Shown one piece after another: positions 3,084-56,716 of a DNA stretch of 64,000 nucleotides. Within the stretch, counting starts at the first letter, position 1. Each line of letters starts with the position of its first letter. The stretch is taken from IMG/VR virus record IMGVR_UViG_3300018080_000104, positions 131,454-195,453 of that record. One strand, 5' to 3'. Source of the DNA: a virus (taxonomy: Duplodnaviria; Heunggongvirae; Uroviricota; Caudoviricetes). The translations under genes and the position numbers were made by a program. The notes beneath the pieces are model-generated. The model was not told where the DNA came from and did no database searches. It worked only from the letters and a program-made list of their open reading frames with translations.

Positions 3084-5714
3084 TCATTGCTGCAGGAAAT
3101 TCGAACGCACGACCAGCTCATTTCGGAAATCCGAATCCGGCTGATCGGCCAAATGCTGCAGCAATCCTAGCTGATAAAGGGCGTATTCTTTGGCCAATTC
3201 GTCAGTTTTAGCGGCCGCGGCGACCTTTACCAGTTGCTGTCGTTGCTGGCATTGTTGCGGATTTCGCAATACTGCCAGTTGCAGCCTTTCTACGATCCTC
3301 GGGCGGTCTAATGACCACTCATTCGCGAATTTCATAGCCCAATGCCGCAATACTCGCGGCGCAGGGCCCTGTGGCAAATAAGGGTTCTGCCGCAGATTTT
3401 CTTCCATTCTGGGGTCTGCTGCCAGTCGATTATAGACTCCTGCCAGCCGCGGAGCAACTTTGGCGGCAACAGCCGCCGCCTTTTCCCGCGACTCTCCCGA
3501 CATAACGGCGATGAATGTCGACAGTGGCAGCATGCAACGCTCCCCAGCCAACGCTGTTACAATGTGCGCCAATTTATACTGGCCGGCATCTGAATCCCCC
3601 CTGGCGGGTTGCACGACGCTATCGAAAGCGCGATCGACGGGTGAAGGTGGAGCACTCTCCAGTTCGTCTTCCAGGCGAATCAGCTCTTGGGCAATTTTCA
3701 ACTGGCCGACAACCCTGGGATCTGACCAAGGCCCTTCGGTAAGCAGCCACAACGGAGGTGCAATACCCAACCGCTCGGCGATTGCGGCGCCTCCGATAGC
3801 TTCTCCGGTAGATATGCCGGCCGCCTTGCACATAGCATCCATCTCAGCCACTTTGCCCAGCGTAAATGCAATTCGGTCGGCGCGTCGGAACACTTTGCTG
3901 ATATCGAAGAAGGTCGGATCAGGATTGTCGGCATGCAACGTATGGCCGTCTTCGAATGTTTTGCCCATGTTATCCCGCAAGCCGCCATATTTCGTGCATG
4001 CATCCGGACCGCAATAATCGGCTCGCGTGCGTGCGTGGTTTCCACATCCGGAGCAGTTATGAACGGCAAAGCCGGCAATATATGTTTCATCTTGCGCTAC
4101 GGCCATGTTGAAGACGTCTGCTTCCTCGTATTCCTGTATAATTTGCTGGACAGGCAATAGCATATAGTCGTGCAACAAAAATGCTTTTGCATGCTGCTTT
4201 TTGGATGACGTAATATTGCGCGCTTTATAGCTGTACGTTGCAAGTCTTGCAACAGCCGTGCGCGAAATGAATACTACGTAGATATCTACAGGCTTATCGG
4301 AAAAGCCGTCGACTGTCGTTTCCTTATGTACAGTCGCGGGAATACCTAGTCCCCAAAAAAGTTTTTGGCAGTCGTCCGCAAGTTGTCTGGATACAGTACT
4401 AAATCGGCCGCGGCCGATATCATCGACATGACCGTCAGAATCTAGCCAACCTGCAAGTAACGCCAGCCGATCCTCTTCACACAAATCAAAAATTGCAGCG
4501 TTGCAGTGCTTTTTATGACTGCCAGTGCCAATCATTCGTTGGATGTCAGAGGCCAGGGGCACATTGTACAGGGTCACGCGCAGCGCCTTGCGATCCGCAC
4601 ATATAGAAGGTTTACGACCAAGTACGGCTGTCGCAGCATCCGTAATATATTGTAGACTAGGATCGTTGCCGCCTGCACTAATTGCAATACCCCGCGCATA
4701 TGGTGCGCCGTCTCGCTTGCGGCCGCGTTTTTGTATTAGCAAAAAGCCATCACCAGTATAACGACCAAGAAGATAAGCTTTAGAGGCGCCAACAACTTTT
4801 GTACCAGGCGATCGTACTGGATATGCTACATAGTCTCCGACGGTAACGTTGACAGCATTATACCATTGCAAATCTAACGAAACTTCCGTTTTGCACGTAA
4901 TGCAGGTCTTGCCATTGCGCACAGTATGTCGTCGTCTTTTATCGGCCGCAGAGCCATAGCATTGCCGTATATCAGCTTGCTTTAACACCCAAACAGGATG
5001 GTTATGTGTCATCGAAATTTGTTCAGGAATGCCAAATACATTAAATCGAACTACAGTGCCAGCGAACGGCCGACAAAATGTTCGGGATACTGTTTGCCAA
5101 TTCCCCTGCTGAGTACGAACGGTATTGCCAATTTGAATAGTTTCGATTGGTTGTAAACCATTTGCTGTTTCTATCAGCGAGCCGCTCAAAAGGCACACGT
5201 CGTGCGAGACCCGCGTGGCCATCGACACTTCGATGTCTTTTCCACGATTAAGCTGCTCCACCTCTTCATCGGCAACAAGCCCGCCATTGCGATCTGCGGC
5301 CTCTTTGGTTCCGTTGAGCGCTACAAGCAATTCGATGCGCCGCATCTTGTCATTGTAATCGGAAGCCTTGATGATACCGCGGCCTTTGGCGGGGTTTTTA
5401 TTGCAGTGGTCCCTGAACCACCTTGCATATTTTACAAACGTCGGATGATATTGCTTGCATACTACCTCACGGAAACCATCGCCGTTTCTATTCGGCCCGT
5501 ATCCCTCCGTAGATCCGAGCGCAATCAAATGTATAGGCACTTCGCCTGGTCCAAATTTGATGCTGGCGATCTTGTCGATGAACTGTACGCTGGCGCGTTT
5601 TACGAAATCATCCAAGTCGCTGCCGCGGAGCCCGCGGCTAGATACTTTGACTAGTTGGGCAACAGGCTCGCCGAGATCTTGCGAGCCGGGCGTAATGATT
5701 TTCGTAAAGGCCAT
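3084..5714 (-). CDS. Prohead-protease-like (HK97/S78-like) morphogenesis protein interrupted by an intein.
   Basis: N-extein carries WFRDH...KG and ...EVSMATRVSHDV, resembling the catalytic His and Ser blocks of phage prohead proteases. The intein follows at CLLSGSLIE..., then a roughly 320-aa C-terminal extension. Sits upstream of the scaffold and MCP genes. Confidence 0.5.
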   Translation of the reverse strand: MAFTKIITPGSQDLGEPVAQLVKVSSRGLRGSDLDDFVKRASVQFIDKIASIKFGPGEVPIHLIALGSTEGYGPNRNGDGFREVVCKQYHPTFVKYARWFRDHCNKNPAKGRGIIKASDYNDKMRRIELLVALNGTKEAADRNGGLVADEEVEQLNRGKDIEVSMATRVSHDVCLLSGSLIETANGLQPIETIQIGNTVRTQQGNWQTVSRTFCRPFAGTVVRFNVFGIPEQISMTHNHPVWVLKQADIRQCYGSAADKRRRHTVRNGKTCITCKTEVSLDLQWYNAVNVTVGDYVAYPVRSPGTKVVGASKAYLLGRYTGDGFLLIQKRGRKRDGAPYARGIAISAGGNDPSLQYITDAATAVLGRKPSICADRKALRVTLYNVPLASDIQRMIGTGSHKKHCNAAIFDLCEEDRLALLAGWLDSDGHVDDIGRGRFSTVSRQLADDCQKLFWGLGIPATVHKETTVDGFSDKPVDIYVVFISRTAVARLATYSYKARNITSSKKQHAKAFLLHDYMLLPVQQIIQEYEEADVFNMAVAQDETYIAGFAVHNCSGCGNHARTRADYCGPDACTKYGGLRDNMGKTFEDGHTLHADNPDPTFFDISKVFRRADRIAFTLGKVAEMDAMCKAAGISTGEAIGGAAIAERLGIAPPLWLLTEGPWSDPRVVGQLKIAQELIRLEDELESAPPSPVDRAFDSVVQPARGDSDAGQYKLAHIVTALAGERCMLPLSTFIAVMSGESREKAAAVAAKVAPRLAGVYNRLAADPRMEENLRQNPYLPQGPAPRVLRHWAMKFANEWSLDRPRIVERLQLAVLRNPQQCQQRQQLVKVAAAAKTDELAKEYALYQLGLLQHLADQPDSDFRNELVVRSNFLQQ
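4056..5195 (-). mobile_element. Intein of 380 aa (residues 174-553 of the host ORF) with a LAGLIDADG homing endonuclease.
   Basis: Splice-junction motifs: N-terminal C-L-L-S-G, C-terminal ...AGFAVHN followed by Cys +1 (CSGCGN). Two LAGLIDADG blocks (LLGRYTGDGFLL and LLAGWLDSDGHV). Confidence 0.85.
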
Positions 5715-9908: not shown

Positions 9909-12281
9909 CTAAACTTCGGGCGAATCCAGGTCAATGTCGGCGCCTTCGCCGATATAGGGCTCGATTGCCTTTTGTTTCAGTTTGAGCGTCAGTTTGCCGA
10001 GGTTCTCGAATGAATTCCGCAATGCGTCTTCTAATTCCGGCAACTCGCCGGCGTCGAAACGGTCTTCGTAGTTGTCATGGTGCCAATAGAAATTGAATAG
10101 CAGCCGGCCGATCGAGTCGAGCCCCTTGACCAGATTAGGCAAATATTGGTCAATGAGCGTATCGTCGCGAGTGCCTTCAAGCAGATTGGATAGTACCGAA
10201 GTATCCAGGATTTCTTGCTGGCCAGATTGGGCCGCCTGCATGATCTGATTCATCATTTCGGGCTCTAGCGGCGCTGCGTAATCGGGTCTCCGGTTTGTCG
10301 TCTGCAGTCCCGGTATCGGTACTTCTTCTTCCAAATACGGCTGCAACGGTATCGAAGAGCCGAAAATGGTATCCTGAGCAGTCTGGTCCTGCCCCGGAAT
10401 TGTCGGCGCGTACGAACCTCCTTGCTGCAAAGCGTAAGGCACATTTTCTTGTCCGTATGGCTGTGCATACTTAATTCGATATGTTGCGCCTTTGTGCAAT
10501 TGTGATTCTGCCAAAATGTGCCGGGCTTGCTTTTCACGCAAACCGTAATCGCGTATCAGCGAAATCAATGCTGCGCGACTGGGCAATCGCGTGCCGTTAA
10601 GCCATGCTTCGCTGCCCGTGTTGATGACTTTCAGCTCGGCAGATGCTTTATAAATGCCAAGCTGCAAATCGATATGTGCGCCAGGTCGCAATGCTGGCGG
10701 ATCGCTGTTCTCTTCGTCGATGGGCCTAGGCGGCGGATACTCGTCGTTTTTCTTCGGCTTTCGCAGCCGCACCATTTTGGTGCCGGGCGGCACAAATAGT
10801 GTCTTCAGCCGATTGATGAATTTTGGACCCTTGATGCGATTTAGCGAAATCAGGTTGCAACAACTGTCGCTTTCGTAATCGTAAAATGATTCACGATTAG
10901 CTATCGGCGGCAAATAGTCAGGACGGTTATCGCCGTAACCGCCTTTCCACCATATCCGGTAACACTTCTCTTCGCCTTCTGCCGGCATGGTCTCCTTGAC
11001 TTCGAACGGGCACGTACCTTCGCCGCGCGGAGTTAGCAGAACATAAACGCTGCCTTGCTCTAGGCTATTGGCTTCGGGCAATCCTTCCCAGTAGTCCGCA
11101 TATTCTGCATCTGCCAGCTTATCCACGGCAAACACGTTGGCTGGATGCGTTTGCGTGTAAGCTTTATTGTCCTTATCGCCAATACGGACAAGCACGCAGC
11201 CAGGCTTTCTTCCGCGATCTCCTTGCGGAGTAGCAATGAACAAACATCTGTCGAATGAATCCGGCTTGGTCAGCACCTCGTAGATACCCGTAGCGTCAGG
11301 GTTTTGCATCGCCAGCGGCGGCTGGACGTTGAGTACCTGCGACGTGTTCTTCTCTTCGCGCATGTCGCGGATATAAACACCATCGCGTTTCAGCTCTGCC
11401 GCCTGCTTATCGGTCAGTTCTGCAGGTCGTTCACCGTCATAGATGTAGATTTGCAGATCGTCGTTCGGGTGATACGGCTTCTCGTCTTGCCAAATACTGC
11501 CACGGATGACCTTGGCCTGCTTTTGGCGGCGCAATTCGATCGGCTGGGCAGAGGCAATTGTGCGAGCGGTAGCAATCGCTGTTTTCAGCATTTCGGTGCC
11601 ATAGCACTGCGCAAATTTTTCAGCCAGTTTGGGTCTTGCATCGATCATCTGCAGTATGCGATGGGCCGCCCAAGCACTTGATTTGACAAGTTCGGGTATT
11701 GTCGGTTTAACTGGGACGTACCTGCCTTTAGCGTACACGAGTCCCGGCAATCCGGCTTGGAGCCATTCTGGCTGTGCCGAAGCATATTTGCCGGGAGAGT
11801 CACGGAAATCTTGCATTGCCGGCCGTGTGGCGCCTAGCGTATTCAGACTATCGCCGGTAATATCGCCAAGAACTACAGGCTTGCGGTTGAGAACGTAGTT
11901 AATCCACCCTTCTTCCATCGGCACGAACGTGTCGCTCTCCTTCAACCAGAGTAGTTCGTGTCCTTTGAGTTCTCCATTGATAAAGAAGACCGGGGCATAC
12001 ATCATCTGCGGACCGATTTTGAAGCCGAACACACCGACGGCTTTGTCGTTGTCCTCGTTTTTCTCGAGCAGCTGGAATCCGAGCTCATACGGAATCAGCT
12101 GCGGCGCACGTTCACGGAGAAACGAATGTGCCAGATTCGATAACGCCATTTCGAATGGTACATTTTCCGCTGCTATAGCGGCTCGCTTGATGAACGCAGA
12201 CCGCTTGCATTGCTGTGCAAGCTTTGTCCAGTGGGCGATTTCGGCACTGACCTGCCTAGACGGAGCAAGAGATGTGCTCAT
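9909..12281 (-). CDS. Large hypothetical protein, 790 aa. Possibly a virion or portal-region protein.
   Basis: Long ORF. SD AAGGAAGttgaataATG. Sits between the RNAP and head genes. No recognised motifs. Confidence 0.5.
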   Translation of the reverse strand: MSTSLAPSRQVSAEIAHWTKLAQQCKRSAFIKRAAIAAENVPFEMALSNLAHSFLRERAPQLIPYELGFQLLEKNEDNDKAVGVFGFKIGPQMMYAPVFFINGELKGHELLWLKESDTFVPMEEGWINYVLNRKPVVLGDITGDSLNTLGATRPAMQDFRDSPGKYASAQPEWLQAGLPGLVYAKGRYVPVKPTIPELVKSSAWAAHRILQMIDARPKLAEKFAQCYGTEMLKTAIATARTIASAQPIELRRQKQAKVIRGSIWQDEKPYHPNDDLQIYIYDGERPAELTDKQAAELKRDGVYIRDMREEKNTSQVLNVQPPLAMQNPDATGIYEVLTKPDSFDRCLFIATPQGDRGRKPGCVLVRIGDKDNKAYTQTHPANVFAVDKLADAEYADYWEGLPEANSLEQGSVYVLLTPRGEGTCPFEVKETMPAEGEEKCYRIWWKGGYGDNRPDYLPPIANRESFYDYESDSCCNLISLNRIKGPKFINRLKTLFVPPGTKMVRLRKPKKNDEYPPPRPIDEENSDPPALRPGAHIDLQLGIYKASAELKVINTGSEAWLNGTRLPSRAALISLIRDYGLREKQARHILAESQLHKGATYRIKYAQPYGQENVPYALQQGGSYAPTIPGQDQTAQDTIFGSSIPLQPYLEEEVPIPGLQTTNRRPDYAAPLEPEMMNQIMQAAQSGQQEILDTSVLSNLLEGTRDDTLIDQYLPNLVKGLDSIGRLLFNFYWHHDNYEDRFDAGELPELEDALRNSFENLGKLTLKLKQKAIEPYIGEGADIDLDSPEV

Positions 12282-12399: not shown

Positions 12400-14274
12400 C
12401 TAACCCCCGGTGGGCTTTAACACATTTTGCGGCCATTCCGTGCCAAATGTTTTCCCGGCAACCAGCGCCGGAACAAACGACGTCGACGCCGTATCGGACA
12501 CGCCGCCGCTGTATACGGCACCCAATAAACTGCGTTTTTGGCCCGAACCAATAAACCGCGTTAGCCAATCGGGGTCATGGCTCACTGTTTCCATAGCCCG
12601 AACCATCTTTGGCTCGAATGGGGGTTTCTCTGCGTGGACGTCCAACGTCTTGACGCCGAAATTGTCAAGATCCGCCAACATTGACGGCTTAACCTGTGTA
12701 CCTATCGTATAGTGCAACACCGGCCGCTCAAGGTATTTACCCACCGCTTGCTTGGGTGATGCTGATATCGTCCCGTCCCGGGGCACCCAATCACGTTCGA
12801 GCCGACTGTAGGACACTAGATCGCCGGGCAAATTGTCGTCGGTTTCATCGAGAATCTCGACGTTGTCGATCAGTCCCCTTGCAATCAATTCGACGTTTCG
12901 CCTGTTGACCCCCATGCCAGCATCCCTGTAGGCTTGCGTGAACGCTTGCACGAAGTACCGCCTACCTTCGCCGATGCCTTTGTATTTGACGATTTCTGCC
13001 GGATTGGGAATGCCGTCCGAGAGGACATCGCCTGCTTCCACCGTATCGCCCTTTTTGACTGTGACATCAAATCCAGGCGACACGTAGTGACGTTCTTCGT
13101 TGACCCATACATATTTGCCTCCGGCCGGTGCGTCATCCATCTTGGTTATGTGACCATCTATTTTGGCGTGTGAAGCGCCCGCCTTAAACGTTTTCGGTAC
13201 CTGTATCAGTTGGTTCAATCCCTGAAAACCCGACACGGATTTTGCTTCACCCTTAACACCGCCAGAATGTTTGGCCGACAACTGCCCCTGTGTGAGTTTT
13301 TCGCCCAGCGCCTGGGCTGCGCCCAATCCTACAGCATCGCCAAGATTCGGCAACGTGCCTCGTTCACGAATGCCGACATCCCGCGCATACACACCGCCGC
13401 CATCAGGGCCTCCGACAATCGGAGAACGGACAAGTAATCGCTTAAAGCCGCGGTTATCAAGATCGGCAAGAATCTTCGGTGTCAGAATAGTATTACGATC
13501 GTAGCCACCGATCGGCGACGCCAGCAGTGCGCCTACATTATCAGTATCATCCGTTGCAACCGGCAGCCCAGCTACGCGCGTCTTGTCCGTTTTGTCGTCG
13601 TCTTCAGCCGTAACAAGCAGACGATGGGCAAGCTGATTAAGCTGTTTTGAAAAAAAGCCGCTATCGGCAGTAGAGAATTTTGTAGCGATAAGACCTTTCC
13701 GGGCGCCAAACGTGCCTGCCCAGTACTCGGCAGGGCTTAGCCCTTCGGAATAGCTCTTCTGGACTGGAAACGGAATGATATTATCGTGGTGATCCATGTA
13801 CAGCATATCGCCGCCGATCAGCCTATTCAAATACATAGGACTGCCTCTGGCGCCGGACTGTACTTGCATGGCCAGCGGATTGGACATTTCCGAAGTCTCT
13901 TCGATGACTTCCTTCTTCAGCCGTGCATGCTCTGCATCGGTCGCCTCGATGATTTTCTCAGCTTGATAATCCTGTGGCCAGTTCTTTGCCATTATGTCCT
14001 GCAAACGGCGTCGCAGCCTAATTCGCGATGCCAATACCGCTGGCGGCGGTTGCAAATGCTCTAAGCCAAAAGAATTACCGCCCGTGCTATATGCAACATC
14101 GCGACCAACATCACTCAGATATTTGGCAATTTCGCTGTATTTGTCCGGATGCTTCTCCGCCACTTCTGCCAACAACGCATTGATACCCTTACGATCGAGC
14201 GAACGATTATAGTTCCGCATATCGTTCGGCAGGCCGCTATTGATCAAAATTTGTCCGACAGTCGTCTTAAGCAT
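12400..14274 (-). CDS. RNA polymerase beta' subunit, C-terminal half (trigger-loop region through the C-terminus).
   Basis: GQILINSGLP resembles beta' region F. GARKGLIATKFSTADSGFFSKQL resembles beta' region G ([23 protein letters not shown]). C-terminal GDTVEAGDVL block present. Confidence 0.8.
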   Translation of the reverse strand: MLKTTVGQILINSGLPNDMRNYNRSLDRKGINALLAEVAEKHPDKYSEIAKYLSDVGRDVAYSTGGNSFGLEHLQPPPAVLASRIRLRRRLQDIMAKNWPQDYQAEKIIEATDAEHARLKKEVIEETSEMSNPLAMQVQSGARGSPMYLNRLIGGDMLYMDHHDNIIPFPVQKSYSEGLSPAEYWAGTFGARKGLIATKFSTADSGFFSKQLNQLAHRLLVTAEDDDKTDKTRVAGLPVATDDTDNVGALLASPIGGYDRNTILTPKILADLDNRGFKRLLVRSPIVGGPDGGGVYARDVGIRERGTLPNLGDAVGLGAAQALGEKLTQGQLSAKHSGGVKGEAKSVSGFQGLNQLIQVPKTFKAGASHAKIDGHITKMDDAPAGGKYVWVNEERHYVSPGFDVTVKKGDTVEAGDVLSDGIPNPAEIVKYKGIGEGRRYFVQAFTQAYRDAGMGVNRRNVELIARGLIDNVEILDETDDNLPGDLVSYSRLERDWVPRDGTISASPKQAVGKYLERPVLHYTIGTQVKPSMLADLDNFGVKTLDVHAEKPPFEPKMVRAMETVSHDPDWLTRFIGSGQKRSLLGAVYSGGVSDTASTSFVPALVAGKTFGTEWPQNVLKPTGG

Positions 14275-14542
14275 CTGGTCGCATGTCTCCGGGTTTCCAC
14301 AGTTTACCTGGCGGTTGTGGTAATTGCTTCTTGTCGATGCGATCGATGATCGTAGTGCCTTTCACGCCCATTGCCTGCAGAGCATTCTCGAATCCTTCTT
14401 CGCCTGCATGCATAATAAAGATGTGCGACGGAGTCTGCTGCATTGCAACAGCGATTGGCGTTTCGTTACTGTCGTATATGACTAATCGGGTACATTCGAT
14501 ATTGTGCAATGCGCCCAATTGATTGTGTGTTTCAATGCGCAT
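14267..14542 (-). CDS. Hypothetical small protein, 91 aa, lying between the RNAP genes.
   Basis: ORF overlaps the flanking genes by a few nt at each end. No SD. Confidence 0.4.
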   Translation of the reverse strand: MRIETHNQLGALHNIECTRLVIYDSNETPIAVAMQQTPSHIFIMHAGEEGFENALQAMGVKGTTIIDRIDKKQLPQPPGKLWKPGDMRPDA

Positions 14543-15296
14543 TACTGTTCAGGCTGCGTGCCAGCGCGGCCAGCACGTCGAGATTCTTGCTTTGTTTCTG
14601 AAATGTTGCAGCACTGATAGGCTGTCCAACATCGTTCGCGCCGAGAATATTAGCGGCAGTCTTTGCCGGTTCTATGGGAGAAATTGGAGTTTGCCCTGCA
14701 ATACCGGGCAATGCAGCCGACGCTGCAGCGTCAGCTGGAGCGCTTGCCGCAGCATCTGTAGGCTGGCTTTGAGGCTGACTGCCCATAAGCGCCTGCGCTG
14801 TCGTCTGATCTTCGAGAATGTCATCAGGCAACGGCATGCCGGTTTGTTGGTACAAATTAGTAATGAGCTTGCGGATACGGCTTAACTCCATGTACATAAA
14901 TGCCGGATCGATCTTTTTCGTGCCGCCCCCGGGGCCTGCCGGCGCAGCCGCGCCTTGATTCGCCACAGCCGTTTGTACGGCCTGATCTATGGCCATCTGT
15001 ATTTCGGGAGGCATTGCCCCTGCCCCGCCGCCTGGCGGCATTCCTCCTGCCATTGGATCCATCGCTGATTCTGCACCACCGCCTGCCATCGGATCAACCG
15101 GCGGCGCTCCACCTGCTGCCATCGGATCCATTGGCGGCGCTGCAGCTCCCGCTGCCATCGGATCCATCGGTGGCGCTCCGCCCGCTGCCGGATCCCCCGG
15201 CGGCGCAAAAGCGACTTTTTGCCGGGCCGTCTCATTGTCGAGTCTCCAGGTCGCCATTTCGAGCAGCTGTGGATAAATCTGGTATTGCTGTGACAT
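14532..15296 (-). CDS. Low-complexity Pro/Ala/Gly/Met protein with four PPMDPMAAG repeats.
   Basis: 254 aa. AAGGA upstream. Repeats are visible in both DNA and protein. Confidence 0.5.
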   Translation of the reverse strand: MSQQYQIYPQLLEMATWRLDNETARQKVAFAPPGDPAAGGAPPMDPMAAGAAAPPMDPMAAGGAPPVDPMAGGGAESAMDPMAGGMPPGGGAGAMPPEIQMAIDQAVQTAVANQGAAAPAGPGGGTKKIDPAFMYMELSRIRKLITNLYQQTGMPLPDDILEDQTTAQALMGSQPQSQPTDAAASAPADAAASAALPGIAGQTPISPIEPAKTAANILGANDVGQPISAATFQKQSKNLDVLAALARSLNSNAH

Positions 15297-15351
15297 GTCC
15301 GAAGTCCTTTATTTGAGACGTGATTGCCATTTTGATAGCTTAGCTGTCTTT

Positions 15352-18300
15352 TTACGATTCCACAATCTCAACATGCTGTCCGACGCCTATTTCGCCGCGT
15401 CTGTAAGCATTGATAGCGTCCTGTTGTGTTCTGAACGTCCGAGTCGGTTTACCGTAATCTCGCTTGGCCGATGCTGCATAGATGCCGCCGACGTACTCGT
15501 TTGTCGGGGCATGTATTGGTTTGAATTCGCTGAGCGATAACAGGTTTTGCGACGGCATTAGCTTTGTTTTGGCCTCTTCGACGGCTTCATCGGAGCTGGG
15601 TACGTGAAACTGCATGGTATCGCCGTCAAAGTCGGCCCCGAAACCGCCCGTAATGAGTGGAGGAATTTCGAGCACTTGTGAAGACGTCAGTTGCGGCCAC
15701 GCTGCCAGTATACCGAATTTATGCAGTACCGGCGCCCGGGTAATTATCACCGGACGGGATGCCATTTCGGCCAGCAGCTCTCTTTTTGTCCTGTCAGTGC
15801 GGTCCTCGACTGCTCGGAGAGCCTGCAGCTTTGGCATACCTTTGCGAACCAGTCGCCGCACAAGAAACGGCTTGTATAGCGTCCATGCTTGTTTTTCCGG
15901 CAAGCCTACATGGTCCATATCGAGGTTCGGATCAGGCGAAATGGCCCCACGGCCGACCAAATCTACTGTCGACCCAAGCAATTTCCGCTGTACCATGCCA
16001 TGTTTGGGGCTCGATGCGAAAATTTGCTTCAAAATTCCCTTTACGTTGCATTCTCTGTTTTTTGGCGTGATCGGATTTCCCAGCCCCGTCACTGCTCGAA
16101 ATGCCTTATACAGTGCTAACCGCTCATCCGTAACGTCGTCGACTACCTCTTCCATGCTTTTCAGCGCCTTATTGGCGTCAAATAACTCTTTGTAGAGGTA
16201 GTTTGCGTCCGAAACCAGCGGTGTGCCGCTTTGCTGCATGACAGAAATGGGCCGAAAAATCGGCGGAAGCACTGGAACACGGCTCAAAAACCACTCTTTT
16301 GGGTGCTGTCCAAGCTTTTTAGCGCCTTGCAGGTACCGTAACCGCCGAATGGCCATGTCGCGGGCAGTTTTTCGGCCTAATTGCGCCTGATTTCTCGCTT
16401 GTTCGATCTCTTTATCGAGATTCATGCGGTCTAACGCGTTAAATAAGGCTTGCGGGCCCGTATTTTGTGTCTTATCCGCTGCCGGATCGTTGCCATACTG
16501 CTCTTTGCCGGCCAAAATAGCCTCATATTTGGCTTTGGTCAGCCCGAGAAGGTATCGAATCGGGTCTTCCATGACAGGATTTGGCATTTTTTCGTGGAGT
16601 TTGATGTAACTCCACCGTTTTCCGCCGTGCCCGCCAGTCATCGCTTCGTCAAAAAGCCCGCCACGGATCGGTGACAAGCGATCGACGCGCCAATCGACCG
16701 TATCTGCGTTCTTTAATTCCCTGTCGCCCGTCAGCGTCTTTGCATCTTTTTCCGTCATGGCCATAATGTTCAGCTTTGTGCCCTCTTTTACCGGATTTAT
16801 TCCGGCCGCACGCAGCGATTCAACAAATTTGGTGTAGACGAACGGTACTTCTGGCACCGGCGGCGAATATCCGCTCATGACTTGGCGCCAATAATCCGTA
16901 TTTTGTTGGCCGCGGATTAAACTAGAGTCGCGAATTGTGTTATAGGCCCCATGCGATAGTAGTGCATTCAGCTCAAGCATACCTACCCGCTTTGAACCTG
17001 TCGCGCCGCCCTTTGCCGGCGCGCCTTCGCTGGTATATGCGCCCGTTGCGCGGCCTTGGCTCTTCGCTTCTGCAGTGTGATGCAATTTCATCAGAAAGCG
17101 ATTGCCGGTTTGAATATTCTCGATGTTGCGCCCTGTATCTGGATCTTTGATAGTTTCAGTTGACGTCAAACCGTGTTTTTTCAATTCGGCCATCACCCAT
17201 TTACTTAGGCTTTGTTCCGTATCGAAATCCGGAAGCTTATAAGGCTGCCCCGTCTTCTCGACAATCTTTCCGAGCGCCGATTCGAGAATCTGTGCCGGAT
17301 TTCCTCGCGAAATGATGCCGAGCGGATTCAGCAGGACTTCGAATGGCCTGCCTTGTTGGTCTTGCGGCATGCGATTATCGGGAACAATTTTGGCTACGAT
17401 TCCTTTATCGCCCATGCGGCCGCTCATTTTATCTCCGACTTCCATCGGCTGCGCAGCTTTTACGATAACGTTGACGCCATTTTTTCCTTTGTACACATCT
17501 GTCACAGTGCCGTCAGCATGATGATCCCAAGTGACAGAAGCGTCAGCGTACGCGCGTTGTCGCCGGCCGATTTTCGGCCCTGTCCGACGTTCTCTTATCG
17601 CAAGGATCAACGGGTCATCGGCATGCACTGTCTCGCCGACCTTGATTACACCGTCGCTGTCGTACTTCTGGAGCAAATCCTTCGGATACTTGGCTGGAAA
17701 ACTGGCTATGAATGCGTTCTTACTGACTTTGGTCGCGTCGTCGAACTCCAGATTATTCTGATACATATGCTCGCTAGTTGCGCGCTTTGCAAAAGACTCG
17801 GAAACAACTATTGCGTCTTCGTAGTTGTATCCCTTGTACGGAATATAAGCCACTCGGGCATTCTTTCCGAGTGCTGTTGTACCTTGTTTATCTGTGAAGT
17901 TCGATGTTGCGAGTAATTGTCCGGGCTTAACTCTGTCACCAACGGCCACAACGGGTGTATTGTGCAAAAACGTTTTTCTGTTGTACGGCAACTGCTCGTA
18001 GATCTCGATATTATGCACTTTGCGATCTGTTCCACGGACCTTGATGTTCGATCCGGTAATATCGATGACCGTGCCTGCTACTTGACTGCGAACGGCACCC
18101 ATTTGTTCGCCGTACTTATCCTCGAACGATCTGTTTTCGCCAGGAATGCCGGCTTGTACAAACGGCGCTTCAGGATCTACTAGCGGCAGTGCCTGCGTCG
18201 CCATGCGGGATGCCATGGCTACTCGTTGCGGAAATGCGGCAGCTTTTAGCGGCACCAAATTAGCGAGCGGACCAAAAGCTTCTGTCATGTGTTTCAGCTG

Positions 18301-19728
18301 ATAATCAACTTTGTCTCGCGGAGCCATGACATGCTTTCCGCGTGAAATTGCACGTATGTTTGCCCGCCCGCTTTCCAGTTCGCCGGGAAATGCAACGGTA
18401 CTTTCTGCAAGTTGTTGTGGGGATCGCCAGACAGTTTTGCCGGTTCGCGGTTCTATATATTGTGCATATAGTGTGCCGTCTTTACCGTATCGTGTATTGA
18501 TAGCTACGCGGCCATCCACGCCAATGCGTGCGCTTTCCGGTGAATGCACAGGATCGATAAAGCCGAGGTGCGATGGCTGTACCGATCTGGCTTCGTCGGG
18601 AACAGCGTCCTGGGACGGAATCCCGCCTTCGCCCATCCGTGTGATACGATGTTGCTGATCGTACAATTCTGCCGGATTGATCTCTTCGAGTGCTCCTGCT
18701 AGTCCCGTGTCGAGCAATGCGCCTCGCATGCTTTTTTCGAATATGCTTGGCTGCATCCGCTGTAGAGATCCCGATACGGCTGCTTTCCAAAACATTCGGC
18801 GAACGTCTCCACTGCCCTTCCGGATGCGTTCTGCAAAAATATCTTCGGGGCCGAGTGTTCGCTGGAACATCAACGCGTCGCGATCGTCTGGAACGTCTTC
18901 ACCGCGATACACCCGCAGTAACTTAGCCGTAGCGGCCAGCATCGTGTCCAAGTCAACTTTATCGTACGGCTTACCTAACGTCCGTTTGGTCACTTCCGGA
19001 TCCAGCGTCATTTGCTGAAAAGCTTCTCGAAGTGCTTCTTCCTGTGTTCCAGCCGGCTTTTTATCCCGATAGAATTTGGCATACAGCTTTTTCAGGACTG
19101 CTGGGTTGTCCTTGCGCATATTGGCAGCAAATAATTCATTGCCCCAGGCCTCACGCAACTGTGTATCCGTAGCGCCCATCATTTTCATTGCGCTGATCAG
19201 CGGCAGTTTCGCCTGTGCGATAGCCAACCTAAATATGCCTGTCTCGGGATCTAATAGGTATCGATGCGCCCGCCCCTTAGCCACGTTGATGTGCGATTCC
19301 AGCTCTCCAGACTCCTTTTCGCGGGTGAAAATGCCCGGACGCAGCCGCATTTGCCGGGACATGCCGTAGTCGCTGCCGCGAAAAATAAACGTTCCGCGGG
19401 GAGTCATCCACGGTACAGTGGCTAGCGTTGCCCGCCGCGTATCGACTGGCGCATTTGTGGCTGTATCCAGCAGCTGCCATGTTCCTCGTAATCGGCGGCC
19501 AAGCGTTTTACCAGCTAACAGCGCTTCCTTTTCGTCTGCCCTTGTATACGATTCAGGGCCCTCATAGCCCACGTCTTTCAGCGCTAGTGTATATCGCTGG
19601 CCCACAATAGGCTCGAAGCGGTTGGCTGCATCCAATACGCTGGAGAATATGGCATCCCTAGTGACAGCCGGATTTCCAAATTCTCGCGCATCCGGCATGC
19701 CATCAAGCTGCATAAGAGGGATTGTCAT
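15352..19728 (-). CDS. RNA polymerase beta subunit fused in frame to the N-terminal half of beta' (includes the ADFDGD catalytic loop).
   Basis: Beta blocks: SHLGFIDPVHSPESARIG, NYEDAIVVSESFAKR, GSKRVGMLELNALLSHGAY. Beta' blocks: VPVLPPIFRPI, LLGSTVDLVGRGAISPDPNLDMDHVGLP, TRAPVLHKFGILAAWPQL...GGFGADFDGDTMQFHVP. Start chosen at ATG 19728 (MTIPLMQL); the track ORF extends to 19800. Confidence 0.85.
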   Translation of the reverse strand: MTIPLMQLDGMPDAREFGNPAVTRDAIFSSVLDAANRFEPIVGQRYTLALKDVGYEGPESYTRADEKEALLAGKTLGRRLRGTWQLLDTATNAPVDTRRATLATVPWMTPRGTFIFRGSDYGMSRQMRLRPGIFTREKESGELESHINVAKGRAHRYLLDPETGIFRLAIAQAKLPLISAMKMMGATDTQLREAWGNELFAANMRKDNPAVLKKLYAKFYRDKKPAGTQEEALREAFQQMTLDPEVTKRTLGKPYDKVDLDTMLAATAKLLRVYRGEDVPDDRDALMFQRTLGPEDIFAERIRKGSGDVRRMFWKAAVSGSLQRMQPSIFEKSMRGALLDTGLAGALEEINPAELYDQQHRITRMGEGGIPSQDAVPDEARSVQPSHLGFIDPVHSPESARIGVDGRVAINTRYGKDGTLYAQYIEPRTGKTVWRSPQQLAESTVAFPGELESGRANIRAISRGKHVMAPRDKVDYQLKHMTEAFGPLANLVPLKAAAFPQRVAMASRMATQALPLVDPEAPFVQAGIPGENRSFEDKYGEQMGAVRSQVAGTVIDITGSNIKVRGTDRKVHNIEIYEQLPYNRKTFLHNTPVVAVGDRVKPGQLLATSNFTDKQGTTALGKNARVAYIPYKGYNYEDAIVVSESFAKRATSEHMYQNNLEFDDATKVSKNAFIASFPAKYPKDLLQKYDSDGVIKVGETVHADDPLILAIRERRTGPKIGRRQRAYADASVTWDHHADGTVTDVYKGKNGVNVIVKAAQPMEVGDKMSGRMGDKGIVAKIVPDNRMPQDQQGRPFEVLLNPLGIISRGNPAQILESALGKIVEKTGQPYKLPDFDTEQSLSKWVMAELKKHGLTSTETIKDPDTGRNIENIQTGNRFLMKLHHTAEAKSQGRATGAYTSEGAPAKGGATGSKRVGMLELNALLSHGAYNTIRDSSLIRGQQNTDYWRQVMSGYSPPVPEVPFVYTKFVESLRAAGINPVKEGTKLNIMAMTEKDAKTLTGDRELKNADTVDWRVDRLSPIRGGLFDEAMTGGHGGKRWSYIKLHEKMPNPVMEDPIRYLLGLTKAKYEAILAGKEQYGNDPAADKTQNTGPQALFNALDRMNLDKEIEQARNQAQLGRKTARDMAIRRLRYLQGAKKLGQHPKEWFLSRVPVLPPIFRPISVMQQSGTPLVSDANYLYKELFDANKALKSMEEVVDDVTDERLALYKAFRAVTGLGNPITPKNRECNVKGILKQIFASSPKHGMVQRKLLGSTVDLVGRGAISPDPNLDMDHVGLPEKQAWTLYKPFLVRRLVRKGMPKLQALRAVEDRTDRTKRELLAEMASRPVIITRAPVLHKFGILAAWPQLTSSQVLEIPPLITGGFGADFDGDTMQFHVPSSDEAVEEAKTKLMPSQNLLSLSEFKPIHAPTNEYVGGIYAASAKRDYGKPTRTFRTQQDAINAYRRGEIGVGQHVEIVES

Positions 19729-34179: not shown

Positions 34180-37014
34180 CTACATCTTAGTGGGTTGCCC
34201 CGGTTTCTCCAAGACAACGTTCGCCGCTTTTGATTGGAATAGCTGCGATGCGACAGCCCGCAGCTGCGAGCCTTCGGCCAGCCAATCCTTAAACTGATCT
34301 AGTGTCAACCCCGTAATATTGCCAAAGCCTGCCCAGCCTTTCTCGTAATTGGCCATGTAGGCAGCTTTGGCGGCCTCCTTAGTGTCAAATCCGAGCATTA
34401 CTTTGTGCTCGTCGAACCGTTTGGTCTGCGGGTCGACCTGATCGACCACGAAAATGAGCTCAGTATCCGGATTGGGCCCAAGGAAAACATCGACATGGTC
34501 TCCGTCCTTATCTTCGGTTCGGCGGATGTAGCCGTAGTGGTTCTTCATCGCGATCGACCACTTTTTGCCGTCCCGCGAAACACCGGATCGCGTACTGCCT
34601 TTGGCGTTCTCGATAGTGACGTCGAAGCCGTGCATGCGCACATGCCCCTTGCGGTAATTGCCGGCTTCGGCCTGCGCTTCCGTGGGTTCTTGTACTTTCC
34701 GCGATTCGGCGGCGATCAACTGCGGCAGTGTCATTGCTTCCTTGACTCGCCCGCTTCGTTTCATGTCGGACCAGCCGCAGACCATGCAATGCGGATGCAG
34801 ATATTCGTCGTCGACGTGCGGCGCCCAGTATGTTTTGTGGCCGCACTCGCCGCAGATCATATCATCGTCGGACGCCGCCTTACTCTCTTGCAGCGGATAA
34901 TCCTCGTGCAGTGCGTGCAAAGCTGGCGCCCTCAATGCTCCTGACGGGAACGCTCCCTGACTCTTGATGCGGGCCATACGACCGATAAAGGCATCAGGGT
35001 CTGTTTGAAGCTCACGACGCAGTTCGTCCGACAGTCCAGTGCCGACACGTCCAATTGTCGGCCCATCCGGTCCTCGCGAATAAGTAAAACCACCTGCTCC
35101 GGTATCGCGGTACTTACCTTCACCGGGAAAGACTCCTGTAATCCATACATCGTGTTCGTCTAGTAGTTTGATTTTTTTCGGTTTGCCCGGTGGATCGTGA
35201 ATCACGATCCCTTCTTCGGTAAGCGGGTGGCGGCCTTCTGCAATTTCCCGCCAAAGCGATTTAGCTCCTTCCGGAGTTGTTGCCTCCTCCGGCGCGTGGA
35301 AGACATCTTCCGGCAGGTGAGACAAAACCTTGCGCAACATGGCCAGCCGCTCGGCATAGGGAGTCTCCTTGGCTATCGGTTCTTTTCCGAGTTGTTGAAT
35401 GTCATAGAGCATTTGCTTCAGCTTGACTCGCTGGTCTCGCTGCTTGGCAATGCTGTTGGCAACAGTGGCGTTGAGGATTCCTCCGAGTTCTTGCGGCGGA
35501 ATAGTTAGGCGTCCTGTTTGTGCCGGAGTGCGTGTGCCGTAGATTTCTCCCTTCAAAACTGTACCGACGAGCTCTTTTGGTATTTGTAGTTCAGGGCGTC
35601 CGTGGAGTATTCGCTCCGTGTGAACTAGCGGCCGCCCTGTCTCTTTGGCCACCCGATACGACATGATTTCGACGCCGTTTTCGAGTAGACGCGTAAGGCT
35701 TGCGGCCCCGTCGATTTTAGCCTGTACGGATGCGCCTGGCTTCAATTTAGCCAGCACGTCTTCGACCTGCTCTTGCGGAATCTTGGTATAGTGTACCTTA
35801 TTGTACGGTGTAACTTCCACCGGCGTTGTATTGACCAGCAGCCACGCTTTATCCTTGAAGCTGCGCGGCTTGATCAGCGCAAAGCGTTCGGGATGCCGCT
35901 GTCCGGCCATTGTGAAGCTGATCTTATCCGGTGTAGCCTTGGTGATAAGGATCTTTCCCTTCCGATGGGTTCGCACTGTGCCAGCACCGTAGCCGCCTCT
36001 AAGCGCGCCTTCGAACGGCATGTATCCGTGGTGATGAAGCGGCTGCCGGTAGATCGAAATTTTCTTTTTGGCATCGGGAAGCTCCTTTCTGGTGGCCCAA
36101 CTGAAGGCCCCCATAGCAGGATCGCCAAACCGGATATCGAAATGTTCGCCGGCACGCCGTGCATTGTGTTTCTGTATGACGAAATCCAGCAGCTGCCCGG
36201 CGCGGACTTTAGAAAGATCTCCCATGTTTTTGATGTCGGGAATTCCGGGAATTGCTACAGCACATTTCATAAGACCCAACAGATTAGCCCAGTCATTATC
36301 ACCGCCATGAGGATCAGCATCGGCCAACGGACCTCCCGCCAAGTCTCGTCCCAACGCTCCGTCTGTTCCCGCCGCTTTTGTATGCGGCCGTAGTAGTATC
36401 TGGCTAGCAGCCTTCGCTTGACCAATTCGCCCAAGGTAGGCGCTTCCTGTCGCAGGCGCTCCAGTATATTGTCCCGAGACGCCCTGTCGTAGTTCGCTAT
36501 TGTCTTTGCTATTCGTTCCGCTTCCTCTCGCGTTTCCGTGCGCGTTAGATATCGTCGCCCCATTGCCTTTCCCCTTGTCATTCTGGTAAAGGATGCCCTT
36601 ACGCCGTACCGCAACAGTAATGTGAAAAGGATATTTTGGCTGCGGAGGCAAGCCATACGTCCTGCGAAATCGCTCTAATTCGACGCTCTTGACCGGAATG
36701 ATCCACGCCTTAGACATCTCTTCCCAGCCGGCCGGCTCGATAATCTTCATTTTACCGACTATGTAATGAAAATCACGCCCTCTTTCCGAAACAGCTCGAG
36801 CTCCGCCTATCTGCGCAAGTTCTTCGGGACGGACAACAGAGATATGGGCATTCAGCTGCCCAGTCTCGTTTGTGGGCAGTTCGATTCCCGGCTCGTCGAG
36901 CGCGTCGAAGTAACCGCGTACTATGGCATTCGGCACGGCGAGCAATAACCAGCCGGATTTGGAGAAGTACAATTTCCCCACTTGCTGTGAATCTGTCGCG
37001 ACTTTTTCATTCAT
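34180..37014 (-). CDS. Multidomain nucleic-acid end-healing and sealing protein: 2H phosphoesterase + LigD-type 3'-phosphoesterase + ATP-dependent ligase + Zn ribbon + inorganic-pyrophosphatase-like domain.
   Basis: Two HxT/S motifs (AHISVV, FHITVA). PE block FVIQKHNARRAGEHFDIRFGD. Ligase motif I KIDGAAS, motif IV EGIVIH, motif V KIKLLDEHDVWITGV. Zn ribbon CGECGH...CMVCGW. PPase-like NHYGYIRRTEDKDGDHVDVFLGP...NYEKGW. Its start overlaps the stop of the PAS gene (ATGAATGA). Confidence 0.7.
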   Translation of the reverse strand: MNEKVATDSQQVGKLYFSKSGWLLLAVPNAIVRGYFDALDEPGIELPTNETGQLNAHISVVRPEELAQIGGARAVSERGRDFHYIVGKMKIIEPAGWEEMSKAWIIPVKSVELERFRRTYGLPPQPKYPFHITVAVRRKGILYQNDKGKGNGATISNAHGNARGSGTNSKDNSELRQGVSGQYTGAPATGSAYLGRIGQAKAASQILLRPHTKAAGTDGALGRDLAGGPLADADPHGGDNDWANLLGLMKCAVAIPGIPDIKNMGDLSKVRAGQLLDFVIQKHNARRAGEHFDIRFGDPAMGAFSWATRKELPDAKKKISIYRQPLHHHGYMPFEGALRGGYGAGTVRTHRKGKILITKATPDKISFTMAGQRHPERFALIKPRSFKDKAWLLVNTTPVEVTPYNKVHYTKIPQEQVEDVLAKLKPGASVQAKIDGAASLTRLLENGVEIMSYRVAKETGRPLVHTERILHGRPELQIPKELVGTVLKGEIYGTRTPAQTGRLTIPPQELGGILNATVANSIAKQRDQRVKLKQMLYDIQQLGKEPIAKETPYAERLAMLRKVLSHLPEDVFHAPEEATTPEGAKSLWREIAEGRHPLTEEGIVIHDPPGKPKKIKLLDEHDVWITGVFPGEGKYRDTGAGGFTYSRGPDGPTIGRVGTGLSDELRRELQTDPDAFIGRMARIKSQGAFPSGALRAPALHALHEDYPLQESKAASDDDMICGECGHKTYWAPHVDDEYLHPHCMVCGWSDMKRSGRVKEAMTLPQLIAAESRKVQEPTEAQAEAGNYRKGHVRMHGFDVTIENAKGSTRSGVSRDGKKWSIAMKNHYGYIRRTEDKDGDHVDVFLGPNPDTELIFVVDQVDPQTKRFDEHKVMLGFDTKEAAKAAYMANYEKGWAGFGNITGLTLDQFKDWLAEGSQLRAVASQLFQSKAANVVLEKPGQPTKM

Positions 37015-53918: not shown

Positions 53919-54913
53919 CTCTTTGCCACTATCTTTTCTCCTTTTGTTAATGCAAGCGCGTTCGAGAAAATATAGTAAAAGTGTGCTTTGCATTGCGCTG
54001 CATCGCCTCGCTGAACTGGGCCGCGCAATGTTGCGATCTGTTTGGTTGTATCCGAACTCTATGCTATTGGTCTCCTGCCAATAAAATGCGCTTTACCATG
54101 CTTTACATTGCACCGCTGGACCAAGCAGTGCTTCATCTCGCTGAGTTGCATTGAACTATAATTCTGTTGGTCGCGATAGTAAAGTACGCTTTGCTTTGCA
54201 TTGCATCGCAGCGCTATGCTTTGCCGCGCCGCGCCGCGCAGAGCCTTGATTATGTTCTGTCGGTCTTGGTAGTAAAGTGTGCTTTGCATTGCTGAGCTTC
54301 GCACGGCTGAGCTAGGCTGAGCCCCGCCGAGCCTCGATTATATTCTGTTGGTCTTGGTAGTAAGTGTGCTTTGCTATGCATTGCTGTGCTGAGCAAAGCA
54401 GTACTCTGCTGGGCTAAGCCTTGCCCGGCAACGATTATGTCCTGTTGGTCTCGGTAGTAAAGTATGCTTCGCTGGGCTTAGCTTTGCTGAGCCCTGCTTT
54501 GCGCAGCGATGCTATGCAGAGCGCAGCCTGGCATTGATTATGTTCTGCTGGTCTTGGTAGTAAAGTGCGCTTCGCTTTGCTGCGCCGAGCTCGGCTGCGC
54601 CTAGCTGGGCTGAGCTAGGCCCAGCTCTTGTTCTGTTGGTCTTGATATAGAGTGTGCTTTGCTTTGCTCTGCATCGCAGCGCATAGCTCTGCGATGCCCT
54701 GCCGGGCCCCGATTATGTTCTGTTGGTCTTGGCAGTAAAGTGTGCTTTGCTTCGCTGAGCATCGCTAGGCAATGCACTGCTATGCTATGCTGAGCCAGAC
54801 TAAGCCGCGATTATGTTCTGTTGATTTTGCAATGGAGTATGCTGCGCTTTGCATTGCTTTGCTTAGCCGGACTCTCTGCCGCGCTCACACCGCGGCAGGT
54901 GGGGAGAAGTCGC

Positions 54914-55099
54914 TTAGGTGTCTGAGATTCGCCGAACTAATTGATCGAGGCTGGTCGCGTGATTCACGAGTCGTCCAATCGCCTTCTTGACAGCCTCGGC
55001 CGATAGACCACTTTCCTCGACGGCTTCGCTACGGAGAAACGTGTAGCGACCACTAGATTGTCGGTCGTCGATCCACTTTTCCAGGGTTGCAGCTGCCAT
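54914..55099 (-). CDS. 61-aa ORF on a unique island inside the array.
   Basis: SD GGAGAcggtgaaATG. Protein MAAATLEKWIDDRQSSGRYTFLRSEAVEESGLSAEAVKKAIGRLVNHATSLDQLVRRISDT. Confidence 0.35.
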   Translation of the reverse strand: MAAATLEKWIDDRQSSGRYTFLRSEAVEESGLSAEAVKKAIGRLVNHATSLDQLVRRISDT

Positions 55100-56716
55100 T
55101 TCACCGTCTCCATGTAGTCTGCACAAAGGGACAGAAAGTATCCCGCTATGCAGACTATTGTACGATATGGATCGATCCGGCGCCGCTTTGCTATGCTATG
55201 CTCTACTAAGCCACGATTATGTTCTGTTGGTCTTGGTAGTAAGTATGCTTTGCTTCGCTGTGCAGCGCTTTGCTGGGCTGAACAGAGCCTAGCCGTGCCG
55301 GGCGCCGATTATGTTCTGTTGGTCTTGGCAGTAAAGTGTGCTTTGCTGCGCTTTGCTGTGCTGTGCTGAGCAGGGCAGTACTTTGCTTCGCTAAGCCCAG
55401 CCCCGATTATGTTCTGTTGGTCTCGGCAGTAAAATATGCTTCGCTGCGCCGAGCCGAGTTGGGCTCCGCCGGGCTCTGCCATGCTGAGCCTGGCCCCGAT
55501 TATGTTCTGTTGGTCTTGGTAGTAAGTGTGCTTTGCTTTGCTGAGCATGGCTAAGCTATACACGGCAATGCTGCGCTACGCTGCGCTTTGCTAGGCCGGG
55601 CAAAGCCTCGCTGCAATTATGTTCTGCTGGTCTTGGTAATAGAGTATGCTTTGCTATGCTTTGCTTCGCTGGGCCCAGCTGGACTATGCAGTGCTGTGCC
55701 TCGCACGGCCTGGCAGCGATTATGTTCTGTTGGTCTTGATAGTAAGTGTGCTTTGCTTTGCTTTGCAGCGCTCTGCTCTGCCACGCCGAGCTACGCGGGG
55801 CTCTGCTGCGCCTAGCCCGGATTATGTTCTGTTGTTTTGGCAGTAGAGTGTGCTCTGCTTTGCAGCGCTGCGCTGGGCCTGGCCGCACTGTGCCTAGCCC
55901 TGATTATGTTCTGCTGGTCTTGGTAGTAAGTATGCTTTGCTACGCTGCGCCACGCTAGACTACGCTAAGCTCGGCTTAGCCAAGCCTCGCCCCGATTATA
56001 TTCTGTTGGTCTTGGTAGTAAAGTGTGCTTTGCTTTGCTGGGCTATGCCTAGCTAGACTACGCTAAGCTCGGCTTAGCCGAGCCGCGCCCCGATTATGTT
56101 CTGTTGGTCTTGGTAGTAAGTGTGCTTTGCTGCGCTGGGCATCGCTCGGCTATGCTGTGCTCTGCTGGGCCCGGCAAAGCCTGGCAGCGATTATGTTCTG
56201 CTGGTCTTGGTAATAAAGTGTGCTTTGTTATGCTTTGCTTCGCTGGGCCCAGCTGGACTACGCAGTGCTGCGCCTCTCGCAGCATGGCAGCGATTATGTT
56301 CTGTTGGTCTTGATAGTAAGTGTGCTTTGCTGCGCTGAGCCAGGCAACGCTACGCTGAGCCGGGCGTTGCTGCGCGGGGCCAAGCTGCGATTATATTCTA
56401 TTGGTCTTGGTTCGCAGCGCTCTGTATGGCTTTGCTGCGCTGAGCGGCGCTCTGCCTGGCACTGATTATGTTCTGTTGGTCTTGGTAATAAAGTGTGCTT
56501 TGCTTCGCTGCGCTGAGCTGAGCATTGCCCTGCTTAGCTATGCCGGGCCCCGATTATGTTCTATTGGTCTTGGTAGTAAAGTATGCTTTGCTTTGCGGCG
56601 CTACGCACGGCTACGCTCCGCCGCGCTCAGCTGAGCCATGCAGCGATTATGTTCTGTTGGTCTTGGTAGTAAGTGTGATTTGCTTTGTCCTGCTTTTGCT
56701 GCCGCTTAACTGGACA

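Follow-up and report, generated by a model that had tools for sequence, protein, structure and literature searches.

The 64,000-nucleotide stretch of DNA analysed here (the window; positions 131,454 to 195,453 of the IMG/VR record IMGVR_UViG_3300018080_000104, from a tailed virus of the Caudoviricetes) contains a four-gene locus that is predicted to encode the catalytic core of a bacterial-type, two-barrel RNA polymerase (RNAP) from two polypeptides. By sequence, the longer polypeptide (the beta::beta'-N fusion) consists of a compact but complete beta subunit, a linker of about five residues, and beta' from residue ~17 to ~550 in Escherichia coli numbering; the second polypeptide (beta'-C) is the remaining part of beta', with the bridge helix, the trigger loop and the C-terminal regions. 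This fusion layout characterises a large phage clade rather than one genome. It is a variant of phage multisubunit RNAPs for which no prior description was found; a literature search that included a 2026 jumbo-phage review yielded no account of a beta::beta'-N fusion. Taken as a whole, the locus is quite probably best explained as a two-chain phage RNAP core, free of alpha and omega, that is packaged and ejected.

Architecture of the two RNAP chains

The four open reading frames (ORFs) of the locus were all confirmed on the minus strand at the coordinates given in the initial annotation (Table 1), and its central observation, beta blocks that run on into beta' without a stop, was borne out. 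The Pfam families Rpb2_3 (residues 347-410), Rpb2_6 (residues 572-899, E=1.6e-58), Rpb1_1 (residues 1100-1194) and Rpb1_2 (residues 1324-1388, E=1.1e-20) follow one another in a single frame, and in the profile check that had been proposed the two Rpb1 families identify the second half of the fusion as beta'. The fusion also matched the beta-like phrog_24349 and positions 168-540 of the 1216-position, beta'-like phrog_25354 in PHROGs, and a PDB sequence search returned bacterial beta at ~1e-67 and bacterial beta' at ~1e-47. An alternative upstream GTG start at 19800 would extend the fusion to 1482 amino acids (aa).

E. coli numbering was obtained by aligning RpoB and RpoC of E. coli to a 31-member family profile. 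Fusion residues 90-196, 258-716, 717-830 and 859-979 correspond to RpoB 113-226, 420-892, 1008-1128 and 1211-1337, respectively; beta is continuous from RpoB ~113 to 1337 on one chain, and because of the position of these blocks it is regarded as complete yet compact, with the E. coli insertions SI1 and SI2 gone. Residues 994-1034 (a weak match to RpoC 24-63) and 1063-1455 (RpoC 160-550) follow, so that beta'-N covers E. coli beta' from about residue 17-24 to 550 and includes the clamp helices and the double-psi beta-barrel with the Mg loop. The two catalytic lysines of beta are kept in GDKMSGRMGDKG, where D766, K767, K775 and G776 are invariant across the 31 family members, as are D1366, D1368 and D1370 of the Mg loop ADFDGD. 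At the junction, whose sequence in the window includes AAGINPVKEGTKLNIMAMT, the last beta motif, AAGINPV (residues 974-980), and the first beta'-like motif, LNIMAMT (residues 986-992), lie 5 residues apart, a spacing that is constant among the family members displayed in the alignment. The N-terminal Zn-binding element of beta' is deleted, and the short Gly-rich sequence GGLFDEAMTGGHGGKRWSYIKL stands in its place.

Table 1. Positions of the RNAP locus, its motifs and the adjoining gene in the window
Feature	Coordinates	Strand	Extent	Basis
beta::beta'-N fusion gene	15352-19728 (including stop codon)	minus	1458 aa from ATG	ORF call
beta-like part	16777-19728	minus	fusion residues 1-~984	profile alignment to E. 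coli RpoB
Catalytic lysine motif GDKMSGRMGDKG	17401-17436	minus	fusion residues 765-776	
beta/beta' junction	16771-16788	minus	~5 linker residues, KEGTK	motif positions
beta'-N part	15355-16770	minus	fusion residues ~987-1458	Pfam and profile alignment
Gly-rich GGLFDEAMTGGHGGKRWSYIKL	16597-16662	minus		
Mg loop ADFDGD	15619-15636	minus	fusion residues 1365-1370	
254-aa repeat protein gene	14532-15296	minus	254 aa	translation, tandem repeat, jackhmmer
91-aa protein gene	14267-14542	minus	91 aa	ORF call
beta'-C gene	12400-14274	minus	624 aa	Pfam, PHROGs, PDB sequence search
Bridge helix GARKGLIATKFSTADSGFF	13651-13707	minus	beta'-C residues 190-208	
Trigger loop	13258-13305	minus	beta'-C residues 324-339	
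790-aa protein gene, next after beta'-C	9909-12281	minus	790 aa	synteny and tblastn to Arash gp218; context, not part of the RNAP

As first annotated, the long ORF ends shortly past ADFDGD, with 88 residues remaining, and the remainder of beta' is found in the 624-aa protein, which contains Rpb1_5 (E=2e-26), a weak Rpb1_4 match and the bridge helix GARKGLIATKFSTADSGFF. This protein matches positions 710-1105 of phrog_25354, and in the PDB search it retrieved the C-terminal half of bacterial beta' at up to 3e-39. Its trigger loop retains the His; it lacks SI3 and has no Cys at all, and the second Zn site is lost, with no cysteine at that place (VRSPIVGGPDGGGVYARDVG).

The fusion terminates at E. 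coli beta' ...HARVKV (~550) and beta'-C starts (TTVGQIL) at E. coli beta' ...TTVGRAIL (~569-572); the split thus lies at E. coli beta' ~551/569, and the long, surface-exposed loop that occupies this interval in E. coli is missing. The equivalent loop is only a few residues long in the unsplit phage beta' of RHph_TM30 and Va2. The resemblance to the cyanobacterial split point that had been noted at the outset is only a rough one: cyanobacterial gamma (8h3v_E, 625 aa) aligns to the fusion end only as far as gamma residue 555 and runs about 70 residues further, and the cyanobacterial split is therefore placed ~60-70 residues downstream. Since the N-terminal 161 residues of beta'-C retrieved no cyanobacterial chains in the PDB search, this boundary was set by the length of gamma alone. 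The start of beta'-C coincides instead, within ~5 residues, with that of beta'-C in the Ralstonia jumbo phage RP13, where beta'-N stops ~36 residues short of this point and five genes lie between beta'-N and beta'-C. The statement that both halves are much shorter than their bacterial counterparts holds for the comparison with E. coli (beta ~985 vs. 1342 aa, beta' ~472+624 vs. 1407 aa), but the difference is only moderate against the beta' of Firmicutes (1161-1199 aa).

Family members, artefact tests and known RNAP systems

The layout, which the initial annotation called unusual, is not confined to one genome; it marks a clade with more than 120 clusters of the fusion protein in a large protein database (51-75% identity), over 100 of which measure 1442-1504 aa. 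The longer clusters carry extra length, several of them with intein or LAGLIDADG domains. A search for relatives with the single beta'-C protein returned nothing, whereas an alignment query found 177 relatives in IMG/VR, among which 80 loci were fetched. Beta and beta'-N share one open frame in 79 of these 80 loci, and likewise in Salmonella phage Arash and Vibrio phage D69; the gap from the fusion to beta'-C is at least 855 nucleotides (nt) in all loci, with beta'-C downstream on the same strand and never adjacent.

These data bear on the possibility that the fusion arose from an error of assembly or sequencing, such as loss of a stop or a frameshift between separate rpoB-like and rpoC-like genes; the initial annotation had called for a check of the junction on this account. 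An identical 1458-aa protein, without stop or frameshift in its frame, occurs on 10 contigs, with places listed from three samples in independent assemblies (one JGI, two Logan), and the linker is of constant length in the family members examined. A frame break does occur in one of the 80 loci, L077; it lies inside beta (query residues ~442-470; L077:11296-11307), away from the junction, and is a sequencing error or a pseudogene. The independent assemblies, the single frames in 79 of 80 loci as well as in Arash and D69, the constant linker and the narrow length range of the main clusters rule out the artefact explanation, to which practically no weight is given. A megablast search of the region against phage genomes returned no near-identical DNA.

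The RNAP genes of the clade are also targets of insertion. In-frame insertions of ~340-450 aa occur in the fusions of L045, L062, L073, L079, L081 and L084, and at least six insertion sites are seen among relatives, at about residues 232, 345, 380, 590, 1037 and 1374; beta'-C carries trigger-loop insertions (residues ~320-337) in L015, L079 and L082. LAGLIDADG_3 and Intein_splicing domains were detected by Pfam in several longer family members, and in the Vibrio phages D181 and D148 an RNAP gene is interrupted by a homing endonuclease gene.

Such a hot spot for inteins and homing endonucleases would be expected if the beta' split were the scar of a mobile element, with the two halves rejoined by protein trans-splicing through a split intein or by RNA splicing. 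Yet Pfam detects no Hint or intein signal where the fusion ends or where beta'-C begins; the interval consists of two conserved coding genes rather than an intron, with no Rfam match; the break removes a dispensable loop; and mass spectrometry of Arash lists both proteins separately. A rejoined beta' is accordingly considered very improbable, and two separate chains are preferred.

The closest cultured counterparts of the fusion, Arash gp206 (1525 aa; OQ632216) and D69 0261 (1527 aa), align to fusion residues 17-1455/1456 in one piece, at ~31% identity and 99% query coverage; the beta'-C homologues, Arash gp216 and D69 0264, are ~27-30% identical. Vibrio phages D181 and D148 belong to the same clade, and in all four phages the two RNAP genes share a strand and lie, separated by other genes, within the portal-to-capsid region. 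The intervals differ from that of the window: Arash has nine unrelated genes there and D69 two small ORFs. Profiles of the two small window families that occupy the interval, of 254 and 91 aa, found no match in Arash, D69 or RP13, and Arash gp213 and gp215, considered as counterparts for their equivalent position, look unrelated. The database records of Arash and the Vibrio phages label the fusion homologue "beta subunit" or "hypothetical"; in the Arash paper, Gp206 is called "beta" and Gp216 "beta-prime", and the fusion is never mentioned (PMC10585845).

Most knowledge of phage multisubunit RNAPs comes from phiKZ-like phages, in which the enzyme is cut into four to five pieces; no virion form had been purified as of a 2020 review. 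The phiKZ/AR9-type enzymes are likewise two-barrel RNAPs encoded by phages; they have no homologues of alpha, omega or sigma, and the head carries one of the sets (PMC7598289, PMC13282480); both the virion and the non-virion enzyme of the phiKZ type split beta' after the Mg-binding barrel (PMC7598289). In contrast to the continuous beta of the window, their beta is cut into two or three pieces and nothing is fused to beta'. They also have two paralogous sets, virion and non-virion, whereas only one is seen in the clade (one place per Arash record, one in the window, and listed loci from different contigs). Similarity to phiKZ is marginal (profile E=1.5e-5 to gp178 and 9e-3 to gp55), far below the bacterial RNAPs, which match at 1e-47 to 1e-67; the phiKZ split positions are only roughly estimated, the alignments being too weak to fix residues. 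phiKZ gp178 (1451 aa) was considered as a precedent for the fusion and rejected, as only its C-terminal third matches, and solely to beta.

Bacterial-like beta and beta' have been found in other tailed phages outside the phiKZ group, all without the fusion. The mReC phages (Weinheimer and Aylward, 2020; PMC7481178) have separate beta and beta' in two genes per contig, for example of 1011 and 904 or of 1364 and 1005 aa; in RHph_TM30 of the Kleczkowskaviridae (beta' of 1127 aa) and Vibrio phage Va2 (1192 aa), beta' is unsplit and beta separate. The cyanobacterial and plastid enzymes also encode beta' in two genes divided past the catalytic barrel, gamma (rpoC1) and beta' (rpoC2), but, besides their different split position, they have a separate beta, and the two beta' genes are adjacent. 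For the junction itself, bacterial parallels exist in the rpoB-rpoC fusions of Helicobacter and Wolbachia, reported by Zakharova and colleagues in 1998/1999, and in the tethered E. coli beta-beta' that Severinov and colleagues reportedly engineered in 1997. In these, the beta C-terminus is likewise joined straight to the beta' N-terminus; such fusions differ in keeping beta' whole and in using alpha2, omega and sigma, whereas the window beta' is cut after ~550.

Gene neighbourhood and the case for packaging

The two genes between the RNAP halves were initially regarded as unrelated, which is correct insofar as neither has sequence kinship to RNAP; both, however, are conserved and belong to the RNAP operon, in which they are translationally coupled. 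Among 75 loci with both RNAP genes, jackhmmer searches on the ORFs of the interval found members of the 254-aa family in 72 loci and of the 91-aa family in 73, always between the two RNAP genes. In the window, the 254-aa and 91-aa genes overlap by 11 nt and the 91-aa and beta'-C genes by 8 nt; the same 11-nt overlap of the 254-aa stop with the 91-aa start recurs in 36 of 71 loci, and in 57 of 73 no more than 30 nt separate the 91-aa stop from the beta'-C start. The gene order is maintained in 64 of 71 loci.

The PPMDPMAAG repeats reported for the 254-aa protein are real, as seen in the translation and in the tandem repeat at 15043-15189 called by Tandem Repeats Finder. The protein is rich in Pro, Ala, Gly and Met, has no Cys and matches nothing in Pfam or PHROGs; its family is built from a short N-terminal helix, variable repeats of the (A)PPMDPAAMGG type, a conserved helical core KIDPAFMYMELSRIRKLITNLYQQTGMPLP and a basic C-terminus. 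For the 91-aa protein, five strands and one helix are predicted with a mean local confidence score (pLDDT) of 85.5 from a 72-sequence alignment; a model from three homologues was poor (pLDDT 64.8), and no structural or Pfam relative was found. Co-translation with beta'-C points to a possible stoichiometric partner, and both small proteins are probably co-produced partners of the enzyme, for example assembly, packaging or specificity factors. A bolder proposal is that the four coupled genes would yield a self-sufficient holoenzyme without Zn or Cys, in which the small proteins are new subunits replacing alpha, omega and sigma in assembly or promoter specificity, and that the complex would travel in the head, be unfolded or threaded through the tail, and regain its fold in the host; this scheme is speculative and rather doubtful.

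The placement of the RNAP genes beside head genes, noted from the start, is supported by homologues of Arash proteins located downstream in the window. Its left end (1-576) encodes the major capsid protein (gp226 homologue); both ends of the 876-aa product of ORF 3084-5714 (minus strand) are homologous to the Arash structural, virion protein gp222; and the C-terminus of the 790-aa protein matches gp218, an abundant Arash virion protein, in tblastn. In more divergent relatives, a portal homologue is located 7-9 kb upstream, and the portal-to-capsid placement is kept across relatives that are only ~31-45% identical. From the positions of the capsid, gp222, gp218 and portal homologues, the RNAP genes are therefore assigned to the head or structural module. 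The order up132, fusion, 254-aa, 91-aa, beta'-C, 790-aa, 340-aa and 452-aa gene recurs over the loci, and the 790-aa protein, which has no Pfam or PHROG match, follows beta'-C in most related loci with enough downstream DNA fetched. Ten flanking ORFs gave nothing above threshold in Pfam or PHROGs, save one marginal PHROG match. The gp222 homologue has an intein in mid-protein (Hint_2 and LAGLIDADG_3).

A helicase gene adjoins beta'-C in Arash (gp217, detected in virions), in phiKZ (gp75 beside gp74) and in some relatives, a linkage already noted for phiKZ-like phages (PMC7824862). A Gp217-like helicase gene directly follows the fusion in five loci (L023, L028, L029, L030 and L039); none was found in the window at E<=0.01. 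Homologues of the two sigma-like proteins encoded by Arash, gp10 and gp196, were detected neither in the window nor in the related loci, and a scan of 9.5-23.5 kb for promoters and terminators gave counts equal to those in shuffled sequence.

Mass spectrometry of Arash virions ranked Gp206 as the top-detected protein, above the capsid protein (3516 spectra, 128 unique peptides, coverage of 100%); for Gp216, 40 peptides and 1210 spectra were recorded, and the sigma-like Gp10 and helicase Gp217 were also detected (PMC10585845). A second line of evidence is amino acid composition. The window enzyme (fusion and beta'-C) has a single Cys in 2082 residues, for which the probability of one or none is ~1e-6 at a background of 0.8%, and the fusion of most family members has none in ~1460; by comparison, E. 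coli beta and beta' together have 22 in 2749, and RHph_TM30 beta' has 16 in 1127. Both beta' Zn sites are lost. In Arash, the virion-detected Gp206, Gp217, Gp10, Gp4 and capsid protein have 0-1 Cys each, and replication enzymes contain about 0.8-1.4% Cys. The virion RNAP of phage N4, gp50, is likewise a packaged, ejected enzyme of early transcription and free of Cys (0 in 3500 residues, as against 41 in 3965 for N4 replication proteins); it differs in being a single-subunit, T7-like polymerase of unrelated fold. The loss of Cys and Zn suggests, short of proof, a virion-borne, ejected enzyme; it is suggestive rather than diagnostic because in phiKZ, the available control, the virion subunits (16 Cys in 2614 residues) are only about two-fold depleted relative to the non-virion set (33 in 2850).

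The two chains are predicted to form an enzyme that lacks alpha and omega. The covalent link would take over some of the assembly role played by alpha2 in bacteria, since the C-terminus of beta adjoins the N-terminus of beta', and both Helicobacter and engineered E. coli show that joining the two leaves the enzyme functional. The head-module location, the abundance in Arash virions, the loss of Zn and Cys and the Cys-free N4 enzyme together make it likely, with somewhat less assurance than for the reading of the locus as a whole, that the enzyme would be loaded into the capsid, be ejected together with the DNA, and then transcribe early genes. As only one gene set is seen per genome, newly made enzyme would probably serve later transcription too.

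Several observations weigh against this reading. RNAP activity is predicted from sequence in all family members; virion detection comes from Arash only, whose protein is ~31% identical to the window fusion; and the Arash preparation also held ribonucleotide reductases and ligases, its authors allowing that abundant infection proteins may contaminate particles (PMC10585845). The modest depletion in phiKZ means that packaged RNAPs are not all Cys-poor. No sigma, alpha or omega Pfam family was found among the called genes at ~5-63 kb of the window, and about two thirds of the genome (~183-199 kb) lie beyond the window. The same contamination caveat, the two sigma-like proteins of Arash and the Cys content of packaged phiKZ-type RNAPs could favour a polymerase that is produced only once infection is under way and reads the middle and late genes; its place beside head genes would then be incidental, and early genes would be left to the host RNAP, possibly redirected by phage sigma factors. 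Gp206, however, exceeds even the capsid protein as the most detected protein of Arash particles; the portal-to-capsid position has been kept among relatives of ~31-45% identity; and the near-total loss of Cys together with both Zn sites parallels the N4 virion enzyme. A purely intracellular polymerase is thus judged unlikely, and packaging with ejection is preferred.

Further window features and implications

Outside the RNAP locus, an array at 54200-58800 on the plus strand, in a gene-sparse region of strong AT skew, contains at least 23 same-strand copies of the core GATTATGTTCTGTTGGTCTTGGTAGTAA(A)GTGTGCTTTGC, mostly at a spacing of ~88-103 nt; behind each core come 50-60 nt whose sequence varies but keeps strictly to a 5-nt period, (GCNNN)n. 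At up to 3 mismatches the core has 20 matches, vs. 0 expected. There was no Rfam match, tRNA or consistent RNA fold in the array, and a 15-mer scan of IMG/VR found no similar one; it could represent promoters or short RNAs, a protein-binding decoy, or a centromere-like site. On the minus strand, a 944-aa protein (34180-37014) with 2H-SAK, LigD_N (phosphoesterase) and InPase domains, preceded by a PAS-domain protein, may be an enzyme of RNA or nucleotide repair or of signalling. A sugar-modifying cluster at ~41000-63600, also on the minus strand, includes a sulfotransferase, NodZ-like and Exostosin-type glycosyltransferases, a rhamnosyltransferase-like protein and an epimerase; a Cpn10 (GroES) homologue, a cold-shock domain protein and a Band_7 protein are located near it.

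The RNAP of this environmental phage clade represents an alternative design: it has two chains and one covalent beta-beta' link, lacks zinc and is nearly devoid of cysteine. As a near-minimal RNAP of the bacterial type, it lends itself to work on how such an enzyme assembles when alpha and omega are absent, and experiments on it are within reach because cultured members exist (Arash on Salmonella, D69 on Vibrio). The annotation of the fusion in databases, where it now passes as a beta subunit or a hypothetical protein, is corrected. More broadly, the enzyme bears on the origin of subunit fusions and splits in intein-invaded genes, and on what packaging and ejection demand of an RNAP.

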